Below, one piece after another: positions 34,835 through 41,128 of a stretch of 64,000 nucleotides of DNA. The notes under the pieces are model-generated. The model saw only the letters and a program-made list of their open reading frames with translations. It searched no databases and had not been told where the DNA came from. Both the position numbers and the translations under genes were made by a program. This DNA is from Niabella sp. (GTDB taxonomy: Bacteria > Bacteroidota > Bacteroidia > Chitinophagales > Chitinophagaceae), in assembly GCA_047601605.1 (NCBI GenBank), contig JASGIU010000002.1, positions 1,688,370 through 1,752,369 of the forward strand. Reading direction: 5' to 3'. Position 1 is the first letter of the stretch, and every line of letters begins with the position of its first letter.

Positions 34835-36340
34835 TTACTCAAACGACATCAGTATGGATTTTTCTTTACTTTCAAGCAAGGAGCTGCCCATCAGGAACTC
34901 GTCCACTTTACGGGCGCACTCACGGCCTTCGCTGATGGCCCATACCACCAGGCTTTGGCCACGGCGCATATCGCCCGCTGCAAATACTTTGGATATGGAA
35001 GTCTTATAAAACTTCTCAGTCGCCAATACATTACCGCGCGCATCCAACTCCAGTTCAAGCTGATCAAGCATCCCTTCATGTTGCGGATGAACAAAACCCA
35101 TCGCCAGCAGTGCCAATTCGCAGGGTATTTCGCGCTCGCTGCCCGGCACTTCGGTAAACCGGGCGGGTTTGCCCGGCTCCGGTGTTGTCCATTGCAGGTC
35201 AACCACCTTCAAGGCTTTGAGCTTGCCGTTATTGTCACCTATAAATTCTTTTGTAGCAATAGACCAATGCCTTTGCGCCCCTTCCTCATGGCTGGTCGTT
35301 GTTTTCAACAGCATGGGATAGGTTGGCCAAGGCATGGCTTCGGTACGCTCTTTGGGCGGCATGGGCAACAGCTCAAACTGTGTCACGGAAACCGCGCCGT
35401 GGCGGTTACTGGTGCCCACACAGTCACTGCCCGTATCACCGCCGCCGATAACCACTACGTTTTTGCCCGTAGCCGTTACTTCCTTCGGCAGGATATTGCT
35501 TTCGATATTAGCATGTTCCAGAAAATCTTTCCCTGCCACGCGCTTGTTGTTTTGCTTTAAAAAGTTCATGGCAAAATGCACCCCGTCAAGTTCCCTGCCG
35601 GGAATCGGAAGGTCGCGCGGCTTGGTGCTGCCGCCGCAAAGCACCAAGGCATCATATTGCCGCAGGATGTCGTGCACATTTACGTTCACGCCCACATTGG
35701 CATGACATTTAAACACCACCCCTTCTTCCTGCATCACCGCGATGCGCCTGTCCACCACCCATTTTTCCAGCTTAAAGTCAGGTATACCATAGCGCAACAG
35801 ACCGCCCGGCAATTCGTCGCGCTCAAATACCGTCACGCTGTGACCCGCATAGTTCAACTGGGCGGCAGCGGCCAAGCCAGAAGGGCCGCTACCTATCACG
35901 GCCACTTTCTTGCCCGTGCGCATATTGGGCGCTTTGCTCTTCACGAATCCTTTTTCAAAAGCAATCTCTATAATATGCTTTTCTATTTCTTCTATGGTCA
36001 CGGGCGGTTGATTAATGCCCAGCACACAGGCACTTTCGCAGGGTGCGGGACAAATGCGCCCCGTAAACTCCGGAAAGTTATTGGTCGAGGTTAGTGTATC
36101 ATAAGCCTCTTTGTAATCCTTGCGATATACGGCATCGTTAAACTCGGGTATCACATTGCCCAGCGGGCAGCCACTGTGGCAAAACGGAATGCCGCAGTCC
36201 ATGCAGCGCGCCGCCTGTTTGTTCAACTTTTCCTCGGGAAAAAGCGATACAAACTCGCGATAGTGTTTCAAACGCTCTTCTATCGGCCTTTTATCAGGGG
36301 TTTCCCTTGTAAATTCTAAAAATCCTGTTGGTTTGCCCAT
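34835..36340 (-). CDS. gltD: Glutamate synthase small subunit
   Basis: [25 protein letters not shown] and GGGDTGSDC. Confidence 0.97.
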
Positions 36341-36370
36341 TGTCTATGTATGGTTTACTTTTTTATTGTC

Positions 36371-36530
36371 CCGGCTTCAGCGCTACTATCAGCCCCGTTG
36401 CGTCGCACACTTCAACTAAAGAATATGGATGGGCTGTTAAAATGTTTATTCCCTCTCCACTAATGCTAATAGAAGCACTAAAGTTGAACGGAGCGTCGCA
36501 ACATCAGCCCCATCAGGGCACTAAAGCCGG
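36371..36530 (-). other. 160-nt structured palindromic element (MITE/REP-like or ncRNA)
   Basis: 13-bp terminal stem perfect with G-U on the minus strand; inner inverted arms; 9-bp direct repeat ATCAGCCCC at 36388-36396 and 36503-36511. Confidence 0.75.
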
Positions 36531-36569
36531 TAAACAAAAAACTATTTCTTTTAAAAAATTTCACCTTTG

Positions 36570-36596
36570 AAAAACCTTTCCGATAAGAATCGGAAA
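36570..36596 (-). terminator. Terminator-like hairpin after gltB
   Basis: TTTCCGAT-TCTT-ATCGGAAA followed by GGTTTTT on the minus strand. Confidence 0.45.
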
Positions 36597-36604
36597 AATC
36601 ACTT

Positions 36605-39600
36605 CTATGCCAACTGCTTTTGTTCCTTTTTCGCCAAAACGATTTTTTTGTAATCGCTTGGGAACACTTTTACAAAATGTCTGATTTGGTTTTCTAAATC
36701 ATCCAAAAGGAACTTGGCCACGGTGCTGCCCGTGTAAGTATAATGACGGCTTATCATGTCCTGCAGAAAAGCTATATCTTCCTCGTCCACAGGGTCAAGC
36801 TCTACCATTTCCCTGTTGCAGTTGTTCGCGAACTTTTGGCCTGCATCATAAATGTACGCAATGCCACCGCTCATGCCTGCCGCAAAGTTTCTTCCGGTAT
36901 CGCCCAGTATCACCACGCGCCCGCCGGTCATATACTCGCACCCGTGATCGCCCACGCCTTCTACCAACACGGTAGCACCGGAATTGCGAACGGCAAAACG
37001 CTCACCTGCCTTTCCGCGTATAAATGCCTCGCCGCTGGTGGCACCGTAAAACGCCACGTTACCGATGATGCTGTTTTCTTCTGGCACAAAGCCCGCTTGC
37101 TTATCAGGGTATATGACCAACCTTGCACCGCTGAGGCCCTTGCCAAAATAGTCGTTGGCATCACCTTCCAGCTCCAACGTAATGCCTTTGTTGCAAAACG
37201 CGCCCAAACTTTGGCCTGCCGTACCTTTCAGCTTGAAATGAATGGTGTCGTCCGGTAAGCCCTTGTCACGATAAACCTTGGTAAGTTCATGCGACAGAAC
37301 CGTCCCGGCGGCGCGGTCGGTATTGACGATATCAAAACTGGCGGTTACTTTTTCACCTCTTTCCAAGGCAGGTTTTGCCGCCTCTATAAATTTCCAGTCG
37401 AGGATCTTATCCAATCCGTGATCCTGGCTTTCGTAGTGATAAATGCCCACACCTTCGGATTCTTCTTCGCGGTACAATATCGGAGAAAGGTCAAGATTTT
37501 TATATTTCCAGTGATTGATGCTATCGCGCATTTTCAATTCGTCAGAATGTCCGACCATTTCATCAATCGTGCGGAAACCAAGCTCCGCCATCAGTTCCCT
37601 GATTTCCTGTGTCAGGAATTTGAAGAAATTCACCACGTGGTCGGCATTGCCCTTGAACCTCTTTCTGAGGTCAGGGTCTTGCGTGGCTACACCGACAGGG
37701 CATGTGTTCAGGTGGCATTTACGCATCATGATGCAACCTTCTACAACCAATGCTGCCGTGGCAACACCCCACTCTTCTGCCCCGAGCAAAGTCGCTATCA
37801 CGATGTCGCGCGCAGAACGCATCTGCCCATCTGCCTGCAACACCACACGACTCCGCAATTTGTTCTTCACCAATGTTTGTTGGGCCTCTGCCACGCCCAG
37901 TTCCCAAGGTAGGCCTGCGTGCCGGATGGAGCTCAACGGCGATGCGCCTGTGCCGCCATCATAGCCTGCAATCAGCACCACATCTGCCTTTGCTTTGGTG
38001 ACGCCTGCGGCAATAGTGCCCACGCCGGCCTTACTCACCAGCTTCACGTTGATGCGCGCGTGACGGTTTGAGTTTTTAAGGTCAAATATTAATTGCGCCA
38101 AATCCTCAATGGAATAAATATCGTGGTGCGGGGGAGGTGAAATCAATCCCACGCCCGGTGTAGAGTGGCGGGTTTTGCCAATCCAATCGTCCACTTTATG
38201 GCCGGGCAACTGGCCGCCTTCGCCCGGCTTGGCCCCCTGTGCCATTTTAATTTGCAGTTCGTCTGCTTCGGTAAGATACAGGCTGGTCACACCAAACCTG
38301 CCACTGGCCACCTGCTTGATGGCGCTACGCATACTGTCACCGTTTTCAAGTGGTGCGTAACGGCGTTCGTCTTCCCCGCCCTCGCCCGTGTTGCTCTTGC
38401 CGCCAAGACGGTTCATGGCAATGGCCAACGTTGTGTGTGCCTCCCAACTGATAGAGCCAAAGCTCATCGCCCCGGTGGCAAATCTTTTGTATATATTTTC
38501 TGCAGGTTCTACCTCATCAATAGAAATAGAAGGCCGCGAGCGTTTAAAATCGAGCAGGCTGCGAATGGTAATGGCTCTTTCACTTTGCTCATCAATCAGC
38601 CGGGTATATTTTTTAAACGTATTGTAATCGTTCATACGGGTGGAATGTTGTAGCAAATGCACCGTTTGCGGATTGAACATGTGGGCTTCGCCTTTACGTT
38701 TCCACTGATAAAAACCACCCGTAGGTAATTGATTCACCGGAACATCTTTGCGGCTAAACGCAAAACGATGCTTGGCCAGGGTTTCCTTTGCAATTTCATC
38801 AAGCCCCATACCTTCTATGCGTGAGGTGGCTCCTGTAAAATAATGGTCAACGACCTCATGATTCAGGCCGATAATCTCAAATATCTGCGCGCCCATGTAA
38901 GACTGCAAAGTAGAAATGCCCATCTTGGAAAAAACCTTCAACAATCCATCGCTCACGGCTTTGATATAGTTTTTCTCCAACTGTTCCATGGACAAGTCGC
39001 TTTTAATCCTGTCTGTTTCCTTCATTGCACGGATGGAAGAGAATGCCAGATACGGGTTGATGGCCGTAGCCCCAAAACCGAGCAAACAAGCAAAATGATG
39101 CACTTCCCAAACATCCCCGGCCTCCACAACAAGACCAACCTTGCCACGCAAGCCTTTCCGAATCAAGTGGTGATGCACGGCAGAAACCGCCAACAGGGAA
39201 GGAATGGCCGCGTGGTCACTATCAATAGCCCTGTCCTGTAACACGATTACCTCAAAGCCATCGTTTACGGCATCCTCGGAATATTGGCAAATCCTGTCCA
39301 CGGCTCTTTTCAATGAACCGGGTTTGCCATCTGCCACATAATAGCATTGCAATGTTTTCGCCTGAAAGACACCTGTATCAATACTACGTAATTTTTCCAA
39401 CTCATAATTTGTCAGGATAGGCTGTTTGAGCGCTACCACGTGACAGTCGAATTCATCCTCGATGAGCAGGCTACCATTGTTGCCCACAAACGTGGCCAAT
39501 GACATGACCATCCTTTCCCGGATAGGGTCAATCGGCGGATTGGTAACCTGCGCGAACAATTGTTTAAAATAGTAGCTGAGATGTTGGGGCTGGTCGCTCA

Positions 39601-41128
39601 AAACAGCCAAAGGCGTATCCACGCCCATAGAACCTATCGGTTCTTTGCCGTCAACGGCCATGGGTATCAGGATGTTCTCTAAATCCTCGGAGGTGAATCC
39701 AAAAGCTTTCTGATATTTGAAAACCTGATCTTCGCCGAGATTGGTAAACATCACCCTCGGTTCGGGGAGTTCCGCCAAACGGATTTTATGTTTGTTCAAC
39801 CAATCGCCATAAGGCTTTTGGGAGCAAATTTGTTTTTTGAGTTCCTCATCGCTGATGATGCGCCCCTGTTCCATATCCACCACGAACATCTTGCCCGGTT
39901 GCAAGCGGCCTTTTTCTATCACAAGGCTTTGGTCAACTGGCAATGCCCCTGTTTCCGAAGCCATGATGACACGGCCATCGGACGTAACACAATAGCGTGA
40001 GGGACGCAGCCCGTTGCGGTCGAGGGTAGCGCCAATCATCTTGCCATCGGTAAAGGATATGGATGCCGGCCCGTCCCACGGTTCCATCAAACAAGCGTGA
40101 AACTCATAGAATGCCTTTTTCAACGGATCCATGTCTTCATTGCCATCCCACGCCTCGGGAATGAGCATCATCATCACATGCGGCAATGAACGCCCGGTAA
40201 GGGCTAGAAGTTCTATCATATTGTCCAGACAGGCAGAGTCGCTTTGGCCGTGATACACAATCGGCACCAGCATGTCCATCTCCTCTGGCGTGAACAACGG
40301 CGAATCAAAACTCGTCTCGCTGGAACGAAGCCAGTTCAGGTTTCCCTGCAAGGTATTAATTTCCCCGTTGTGCGCAATGAATCGGAAAGGCTGCGCCAAC
40401 TTCCAGGAAGGAAAAGTATTGGTAGCAAAGCGGGAATGCACCAAACCAAAAGCACTGACAGCCCGCTTGTCGGAAAGGTCAAGATAATATTCGCGCACCT
40501 GGTGGCTGGTCAACTGTCCTTTATATATTACCGTGCGGCAAGACAGCGAGGTCACATAAAAACCAATCGGGTCTTTCTTCACCGCGCTCTGCGTCATGTG
40601 AGAAGCATGTTTGCGCAGCACGAACAACTTGCGTTCAAACTCGTCCGCATCTTTGATATGTTCTGGACGTTCGATAAAAACCTGCTCTATGTCAGGCTCT
40701 ACGCCCAGGGCAGAAGGCCCGATGCCGCTATTGTTCACTGGTACGTTCCGCCAGCAAATTACCTTCATGCCCATTTTTTCTGTCGCACGGGTAAAAATGT
40801 CCCGGCATTCCTCCCGCACGCTGATTGATTTCGGGAAGAATATCATGCCCACGGCATAATGTTCCACCTCGGGCAAGGTAATGCCAATCTTGAGGCAATC
40901 ATCATAATATAGCTCATGCGGGATTTGTATCATGATACCGGCACCATCGCCCGTTGTGGGCTCGCAGCCACAGGCACCCCGGTGCTCCATATTCTCCAAA
41001 ATCGTCAAGGCGTCGGATATGGTAGGATGATTTTTGTTGCCTTTTATATTGGCCACAAATCCGATACCACAAGCGTCGCGCTCAAAAGAAGGGTCATAAA
41101 GTCCTTTTTTTTCTGTCATAAATACCAA
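36605..41128 (-). CDS. gltB: Glutamate synthase large subunit
   Basis: N-terminal ERDACGIG (Ntn Cys), HRGACG, AMSFGSIS, KMAQGAKPGEGGQLPG and CIMMRKCHLNTCP. Confidence 0.98.
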   Translation of the reverse strand: MVFMTEKKGLYDPSFERDACGIGFVANIKGNKNHPTISDALTILENMEHRGACGCEPTTGDGAGIMIQIPHELYYDDCLKIGITLPEVEHYAVGMIFFPKSISVREECRDIFTRATEKMGMKVICWRNVPVNNSGIGPSALGVEPDIEQVFIERPEHIKDADEFERKLFVLRKHASHMTQSAVKKDPIGFYVTSLSCRTVIYKGQLTSHQVREYYLDLSDKRAVSAFGLVHSRFATNTFPSWKLAQPFRFIAHNGEINTLQGNLNWLRSSETSFDSPLFTPEEMDMLVPIVYHGQSDSACLDNMIELLALTGRSLPHVMMMLIPEAWDGNEDMDPLKKAFYEFHACLMEPWDGPASISFTDGKMIGATLDRNGLRPSRYCVTSDGRVIMASETGALPVDQSLVIEKGRLQPGKMFVVDMEQGRIISDEELKKQICSQKPYGDWLNKHKIRLAELPEPRVMFTNLGEDQVFKYQKAFGFTSEDLENILIPMAVDGKEPIGSMGVDTPLAVLSDQPQHLSYYFKQLFAQVTNPPIDPIRERMVMSLATFVGNNGSLLIEDEFDCHVVALKQPILTNYELEKLRSIDTGVFQAKTLQCYYVADGKPGSLKRAVDRICQYSEDAVNDGFEVIVLQDRAIDSDHAAIPSLLAVSAVHHHLIRKGLRGKVGLVVEAGDVWEVHHFACLLGFGATAINPYLAFSSIRAMKETDRIKSDLSMEQLEKNYIKAVSDGLLKVFSKMGISTLQSYMGAQIFEIIGLNHEVVDHYFTGATSRIEGMGLDEIAKETLAKHRFAFSRKDVPVNQLPTGGFYQWKRKGEAHMFNPQTVHLLQHSTRMNDYNTFKKYTRLIDEQSERAITIRSLLDFKRSRPSISIDEVEPAENIYKRFATGAMSFGSISWEAHTTLAIAMNRLGGKSNTGEGGEDERRYAPLENGDSMRSAIKQVASGRFGVTSLYLTEADELQIKMAQGAKPGEGGQLPGHKVDDWIGKTRHSTPGVGLISPPPHHDIYSIEDLAQLIFDLKNSNRHARINVKLVSKAGVGTIAAGVTKAKADVVLIAGYDGGTGASPLSSIRHAGLPWELGVAEAQQTLVKNKLRSRVVLQADGQMRSARDIVIATLLGAEEWGVATAALVVEGCIMMRKCHLNTCPVGVATQDPDLRKRFKGNADHVVNFFKFLTQEIRELMAELGFRTIDEMVGHSDELKMRDSINHWKYKNLDLSPILYREEESEGVGIYHYESQDHGLDKILDWKFIEAAKPALERGEKVTASFDIVNTDRAAGTVLSHELTKVYRDKGLPDDTIHFKLKGTAGQSLGAFCNKGITLELEGDANDYFGKGLSGARLVIYPDKQAGFVPEENSIIGNVAFYGATSGEAFIRGKAGERFAVRNSGATVLVEGVGDHGCEYMTGGRVVILGDTGRNFAAGMSGGIAYIYDAGQKFANNCNREMVELDPVDEEDIAFLQDMISRHYTYTGSTVAKFLLDDLENQIRHFVKVFPSDYKKIVLAKKEQKQLA

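Follow-up and report, generated by a model that had tools for sequence, protein, structure and literature searches.

Two inverted copies of a dispersed Chitinophagaceae intergenic repeat form the hairpin in the gltB-gltD spacer of a Niabella genome

The window, a 64,000-nt stretch of a Niabella sp. genome, carries the two glutamate synthase genes on its minus strand. The large subunit gene gltB (36605..41128) and the small subunit gene gltD (34835..36340) were both identified as open reading frames with strong matches to the respective protein models (NF008730, 1712 bits; TIGR01317, 693 bits), in agreement with the initial annotation, and are separated by a spacer of 264 nt. Just past the gltB stop codon, a short hairpin (36573..36600, minus strand) appears as a 12-bp stem in the fold of the whole spacer. 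A terminator-like hairpin had been proposed 3' of gltB; the hairpin exists and lies outside the repeat described below, but it was not flagged by a consensus terminator scan, and its U-run lies partly within the stem. One sigma-70-like site was found outside the element described below. A cmscan of positions 36000-37000 against Rfam (E ≤ 10) returned three chance-level matches only, all of them outside the element.

At 36371-36530, the minus strand folds into a nested hairpin of -66.1 kcal/mol (z = -5.23, with none of 200 shuffled sequences as good). The plus strand of the same segment gave a weaker fold (-49.4 kcal/mol, z = -3.66) in which the outer stem is broken, and the fold of the whole spacer reached -87.9 kcal/mol (z = -5.28). 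The hairpin is a real structure, far above chance. Its coordinates and architecture, originally read from the letters, were reproduced by the minus-strand fold, including the outer stem of 13 bp with two G-U pairs, the bubble, the inner stems GUUGCG/CGCAAC and UUCAACU/AGUUGAA, and the two small hairpins at the junction. Its extent has to be revised, as the paired region is longer: in the whole-spacer fold, the stem continues by pairing of a 5' U-run with a 3' A-run to about 36356-36544. On both strands the U-run precedes the hairpin and the A-run follows it, which is the reverse of terminator geometry, and the terminator consensus scan found no intrinsic terminator site in the hairpin. A reading as terminator was rejected on these two grounds.

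The genome-wide BLASTn search suggested earlier as a check of copy number, with the spacer and the 160-mer as queries against the window's own 3.85-Mb genome, yielded matches at about 93 dispersed places, nearly all of them to one arm only. Each arm of the hairpin is one copy of a polar, non-palindromic intergenic repeat of about 85 nt. The element in the window consists of an A unit (36464-36547, minus strand) and a B unit (36356-36436, plus strand), which lie tail to tail with their T-rich ends outward and which we refer to as a doublet. Unit A begins with a T-rich 5' flank (36531..36547), recognized by the family consensus T-run before CCGGC and by the fold, in which it extends the stem by base-pairing to the A-rich flank of unit B. 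CCGGC and a left wing of the 'CCCTGATGGGGC' type follow (36503..36530; alignment of 87 A-type copies), a segment that supplies one strand of the outer stem and one side of the internal bubble. The near-invariant core of dialect A (G plus TTGCGACGCTCCGTTCAAC) occupies 36483..36502 (87 genome copies with ≤3 mismatches), and the right wing, of the 'GTGCTnCTATnAGCA' type (36464..36482), corresponds by fold and alignment to the UAGUGCU/AGCAUUA hairpin of the junction. A spacer of 27 nt (36437..36463), which the BLAST search with the 160-mer did not find repeated elsewhere, separates unit A from unit B. On the plus strand, unit B comprises a T-rich 5' flank (36356..36369; sequence, family consensus and fold), which on the sense strand of gltD forms a leader rich in A and stops 15 nt short of the gltD ATG, CCCGGC with a left wing of the 'GCTACTATCAGC' type (36370..36396; alignment), the near-invariant core of dialect B (GTTGCGTCGCACACTTCAAC on the plus strand, 36397..36416; 38 genome copies with ≤3 mismatches) and a right wing of the 'GAATATGGATGGGC' type (36417..36436; alignment). 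Both arms match the family consensus and carry exact A and B cores.

As a whole, the doublet is unique in the genome, and BLAST of the 160-mer detected no second copy of its central part. The sole other such doublet in the genome (C2:665921-666015) likewise combines an A with a B unit. Units A and B are complementary only through being homologous and inverted. The two G-U pairs of the outer stem had been put forward as a sign of RNA-type pairing. At the level of the family this argument fails, and the two pairs are best read as chance transitions between two non-identical copies, because in another genome the sense strand was the better-folding one in just 6 of 12 doublets between co-directional genes.

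The repeat family comprises about 125 copies in this Niabella genome, 87 of dialect A and 38 of dialect B (≤3 mismatches). The dialect A core, TTGCGACGCTCCGTTCAAC, is present in 51 exact copies and the dialect B core, TTGCGTCGCACACTTCAAC, in 13, and shuffled cores gave 0-1 matches in the genome. In the 'R' orientation, a unit is laid out as a T-run (roughly TTTTTAT, then two variable bases), 0-6 bases, CCGGC, left wing, core and right wing, and spans about -45 to +20 nt around the core. The wings measure about 20 nt each and occur in three types, with both wings of a unit being direct and not inverted repeats of each other. The core of 19-20 nt is near-invariant; conservation by column amounts to 90-99% in the core and 30-70% in the wings. 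Most copies in this genome are singlets. RNAalifold found no consensus structure for single units (96 units from a high-copy genome), with mean z values of -0.2 and -0.6 for the two strands; hairpins are made by inverted pairs only.

By a crude ORF map, 119 of the 125 copies are intergenic. The T-rich end tends to lie at a gene border: in 45 of these 119 units, CCGGC follows the stop codon of a co-directional gene at a distance of 0-25 nt, and in 80 the T-rich side is nearer to a gene than the other side. With respect to the flanking genes, 49 and 34 units fall into the two tandem arrangements, 24 lie between divergent and 12 between convergent genes. A replication-strand bias was not observed (66 leading versus 61 lagging). 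The best pair of copies in the genome is 89% identical over 82 nt, and there were no recent identical copies here from which the unit boundaries could be fixed. The family is old in this genome, because even its best pair reaches just this identity, and constraint on the core is much stronger than on the remainder of the unit. Given the same lack of recent copies, the sequences do not seem to support current mobility of the repeat in this genome.

Two further readings of the units were tried and rejected. An ATG in the T-rich flank opens a hydrophobic reading frame in some copies, but one of the three wing types contains an in-frame TGA. A promoter function was dismissed in view of the lack of a conserved -33 element, the absence of TAnnTTTG by eye in the flanks inspected and an orientation to the downstream gene of 73:46. 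Comparison of flanks within the genome also brought up other small repeat families unrelated to the units, such as a 106-nt stretch shared at 89% identity between C1:~69.8 kb and C2:~1111.9 kb.

The closest relatives of the window's gltD belong to Niabella, and BLAST matches to the arms were found in 19 of 24 other Niabella genomes, while 0 of 16 genomes from other families of the order had any. Of 121 Chitinophagaceae genomes sampled, 62 contain a 13-mer of the B core (61 of 120 genera; reversed control about 0), with the highest exact counts being 729, 590, 218 and 164 copies per genome, and 33 contain a 14-mer of the A core. Outside the family, a single stray match to the B core was obtained in 94 genomes of the order. 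Two further core dialects were recognized, C (TTGCCACGCTCGGTTCA) and D (TTGTGTCACTCACTTGTAC). The core contains a 7-bp palindrome: GCGTCGC of dialect B is GTGTCAC in dialect D, changed on both sides (GCGWCGC to GTGTCAC across dialects). This compensatory change suggests recognition by a dimeric DNA-binding protein and not a nucleic-acid hairpin, because a 3-bp stem with a 1-nt loop cannot form. An exact 16-mer of the B core was further detected in 15 stretches of IMG/VR, 14 of which have the full unit context, with several cores per locus; the repeat is thus present on predicted viral or proviral DNA as well. BLAST against GenBank phages and PLSDB plasmids gave no match. A full-text literature search by name and core sequence retrieved no description of the repeat family.

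We also compared the gltB-gltD spacer among relatives, the check for empty sites that had been proposed for the locus. In other Niabella, 26 of 29 gltB-gltD spacers are free of units and measure 34-156 nt, and 3 hold a single unit each, at differing positions and orientations. The two closest relatives (91-93% identity of the GltD N-terminus) have one B-like unit in the orientation of the window's unit B, truncated in one of the two, and the third occupied Niabella spacer has its unit in the other orientation. A B-like unit is also found in the gltB-gltD spacer of three more distant genera. The empty congener spacers could not be aligned with that of the window. On this comparison, the locus is polymorphic for occupancy; unit B may be older than unit A, which in this spacer is unique to this genome. 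With spacers of as little as 34 nt in congeners, gltB and gltD are probably cotranscribed, and the doublet would then lie within their mRNA. Many Niabella spacers consist largely of tandem motifs of about 9 nt, of the ATCAGCAAT / ATCAGAAAT kind, just upstream of gltD. These motifs are possibly a conserved leader or an array of binding sites and are absent from the window's spacer.

To describe how neighbouring units are oriented, we compared them in this genome and in three samples of about 400 kb from three other genera (G120, G130 and G144). At spacings under 400 nt, 66 pairs were inverted (62 convergent, with the T-rich ends outward, and 4 divergent) and none tandem. At 400-1500 nt the ratio was 57 inverted to 7 tandem, at 1500-3000 nt 87 to 33, and at 3-6 kb 84 to 79. 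After removal of doublets, the three wider spacing classes still gave inverted-to-tandem ratios of 53:4, 67:18 and 41:39. Inversion of neighbours under about 3 kb thus holds with genes in between and for singlets alone, and the convergent doublet in the window obeys this orientation rule of the family. The rule cannot be derived from the preferred direction of units relative to genes, because units that followed gene direction would lie in tandem on either side of co-directional genes.

In high-copy genomes, about 30-40% of the units are in doublets. Two units in one spacer are expected by chance about 2.5 times in this genome and the count fits, though the chance expectation offers no explanation for both doublets being convergent. 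Two units of an inverted pair resemble each other no more than randomly chosen units do (P = 0.95 and 0.33), which argues against local copying, against REPIN-like co-replication of doublets and against selection for complementarity; duplicative inversion and selected complementarity of partners were rejected accordingly. A rule on the pairing of dialects within doublets was abandoned as well, the results differing between genomes. No common family was found among the 268 ORFs between inverted pairs, so that a cargo transposon or autonomous element between them was also rejected. In one block syntenic between G120 (C1:11195 and 12625) and G144 (C12:9821 and about 11190), units sit in the same two spacers but are convergent in one genus and divergent in the other, while the intervening genes keep their orientation.

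To explain the rule, we favor a selective loss of directly repeated neighbours, with the sites being recombinogenic at short range. A further-reaching reading, which we offer tentatively and consider possible but doubtful, is that the units are sites of a Chitinophagaceae-specific recombination or transposition system, in which a dimer would read the core palindrome, direct neighbours would be lost and only inverted ones would survive within ~3 kb. If this is true, the units would represent a novel type of interspersed element in bacteria, distinct from both REP/RAYT and TIR-MITE, and the system would also shape which genes can sit between copies.

A search for an enzyme that mobilizes the repeat, covering Y1/RAYT transposases, larger insertion sequences and cargo genes, found none. 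This genome has one clear Y1_Tnp gene (C4:80167-80511), which scores as IS200 (62 bits) and reaches only 28.6 bits with the RAYT model, against a cut-off of 80. No unit lies within 14 kb of it. Across the family, 85 of 121 genomes contain PF01797, whatever their number of units, and Y1_Tnp is missing in 4 of the 20 genomes with more than 20 copies. A link to RAYT was rejected on the sub-cut-off score, the presence of other small hairpins at the Y1 gene and the lack of correlation with copy number. The ends of larger insertion sequences were discarded as a source of the units, the sequence beyond the units being unrelated between copies. Small GC-rich hairpins of the xxCC-TTCG-GGxx kind lie on either side of the Y1 gene of this genome. 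Comparable flanks, in part with GTAG/CTAC, were seen at the Y1 genes of other genera; these hairpins may be a separate, classical REP-like family. In two genera, a unit of the rarer dialect C lies 90-330 nt upstream of a Y1 (IS200-like) gene (L173:1285-1303 in G120 and L174:2158-2176 in G130). Such proximity is unlikely by chance, with 31 and 78 C copies in those genomes, and the two Y1 proteins belong to different subfamilies.

We consider it very probable that two independent copies of a dispersed, non-autonomous, polar intergenic repeat of Chitinophagaceae give rise to the hairpin as a by-product. Among the alternatives offered in the initial annotation, a lineage-specific MITE/REP family comes nearest, as the arms do belong to a family that is dispersed over this genome in about 125 copies with variable flanks; the anatomy proposed for it, a MITE of 106 bp with a target site duplication (TSD) in a REP hairpin, was wrong. 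According to that proposal, a MITE with GTTGCG...CGCAAC termini and a 9-bp TSD had inserted into a REP-like hairpin of 45 bp. Both the direct repeat ATCAGCCCC on either side of 36397-36502 and the inverted GTTGCG/CGCAAC ends are present, but the alignment of the family refutes the reading, which we regard as extremely improbable. The supposed termini are the conserved cores and lie in the middle of the units, the 106-bp stretch merely runs from the core of one copy to that of the other and has no further copy in the genome, and the two CCGGC-plus-wing segments that make up the supposed host hairpin always travel with the core, as they do in about 125 solitary copies. The 9-nt repeat is internal to the outer wings of the units and is not a TSD. 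No such direct repeat occurs in the doublet at C2:665921-666015, and in the window it is a coincidental match of the end of one wing type to another type in reverse complement. The chances of a dedicated structured RNA between gltB and gltD, 6S-like rod or other sRNA, are smaller still, to the point of being negligible. Its rod-like fold with an internal bubble is significant on the gene strand; against this stand the lack of an Rfam family at E < 10, the dispersal of the arms in about 125 copies that occur in both orientations relative to genes and are unstructured as single units, the emptiness of the locus in most congeners and a central part that is conserved nowhere. Dispersal in many copies with variable flanks had been named in the initial annotation as a finding that would refute a dedicated ncRNA, and we regard that reading as refuted.

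Somewhat more room is left for readings in which a doublet acts as a unit. In a REPIN-RAYT system, the doublet would be replicated and moved as a hairpin by a single-copy REP-associated Y1 transposase. High-copy genomes often contain hairpin-forming inverted doublets, a Y1_Tnp gene is present once in this genome, and a type-C unit precedes a Y1 gene by 90-330 nt in two other genera. Nevertheless, such a system is very unlikely here: the units are non-palindromic, lack a fixed GTAG and occur mostly as singlets in this genome, the halves of doublets are no more alike than random units, and units show no replication-strand bias (66:61). Neither does the gene itself fit, as described above, with its IS200-type score, its distance of more than 14 kb from any unit, the different hairpins that flank it and a distribution in the family that disregards copy number. 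Exaptation of the doublet as an intercistronic regulator has a better, though still low, probability. In the manner of REP/BIME, the hairpin would block 3'-5' exonucleases or partly terminate transcription or translation, and so set the GltB:GltD ratio. Its position between co-directional genes that are likely cotranscribed, its high stability (-66 kcal/mol, or -88 kcal/mol with flanks) and the better folding of the minus (sense) strand would be in line with this. However, the idea that the element uncouples the stoichiometry of gltB and gltD loses weight, as units are absent from the spacer in 26 of 29 congeners and the remaining three have a single, unstructured one. The strand preference is not shared by the doublets of the other genome (6 of 12), and the order of U-run and A-run is the reverse of a terminator. 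Glutamate synthase subunits are also required in equal amounts, which argues against an altered ratio.

In the reading as two independent repeat copies, copies of dialects A and B with different wing types lie tail to tail in the gltB-gltD spacer. The near-invariant core would be a putative binding site for a protein, be it a recombinase, a transposase or a host factor, by which the units are spread or maintained, and the doublet would fold in the gltBD mRNA as a long imperfect hairpin. A cis-effect of the doublet on gltBD expression is possible by analogy with REP/BIME elements, where the hairpin might at most modestly stabilize the gltB message or dampen gltD expression. Most likely, the doublet is a tolerated passenger.

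Among known systems, the family behaves closest to REP/BIME/REPIN elements, yet it fails their defining features. Like the REPs and BIMEs of Enterobacteria and the REPINs of Pseudomonas, it consists of short non-coding intergenic repeats in tens to >1000 copies, often just past stop codons, whose presence varies between related species and which occur as singlets and as inverted pairs, the latter folding into long hairpins once transcribed within an operon. Pairs bring together several sequence types, much like the Y and Z REPs in BIMEs. In contrast, a REP is an imperfect, self-folding palindrome of 20-40 nt, whereas the present unit measures ~85 nt, is polar and does not fold. No tag equivalent to GTAG/CGTC is fixed among the 125 units (CTAC is found in one of the three wing types), and the conserved part is a central core of 19-20 nt and not a stem. 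The halves of a doublet are unrelated copies, unlike in REPINs, there is no association with a RAYT, which in those systems is a single-copy gene flanked by repeats, and the repeat has no strand bias.

With MITEs such as the Correia elements of Neisseria and Nezha of cyanobacteria, the family shares a non-autonomous, dispersed and intergenic nature and patchy copy numbers, and a doublet looks as if it were an element bounded by long terminal inverted repeats. It is the half, however, and not the doublet that is repeated; terminal inverted repeats are absent within the unit, and inverted ends exist only in the unique doublet. There is no TSD, the T-run flanks the unit on one side only, the flanks of the doublet are complementary and not direct, and this genome has no parent insertion sequence with matching ends. 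DNA uptake sequences (DUS of Neisseriaceae, USS of Pasteurellaceae) are comparable in having a short, near-invariant core throughout a family, 'dialects' and copy numbers from the hundreds into the thousands, with inverted pairs between genes being common. They differ in that the present core is part of a conserved unit of ~85 nt which is nearly excluded from coding sequence (119 of 125 intergenic), and in that half of the sampled genera have no copy. The pdif (XerC/D) modules of Acinetobacter plasmids also have neighbouring sites that alternate in orientation and genes bracketed by inverted sites. Here, the core shows no 11-6-11 Xer-type architecture, hundreds of sites lie on the chromosome, the genes they bracket are housekeeping genes in synteny, and an associated recombinase was not found.

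We conclude that the doublet is an ordinary member of a repeat family that is apparently undescribed in the literature searched. At the level of the locus, a striking hairpin is accounted for by two copies of a repeat, and a candidate ncRNA or riboregulator drops out. Masking of the units during annotation is advisable, as it avoids false calls of sRNAs, terminators and promoters. In some Chitinophagaceae, the repeat makes up as much as a few percent of the genome. In architecture it matches neither REPs nor MITEs, conservation of its core extends over >60 genera and its copies follow a strict orientation rule at short range. The partner protein could reveal a new mechanism of mobilization or genome structuring in Bacteroidota.
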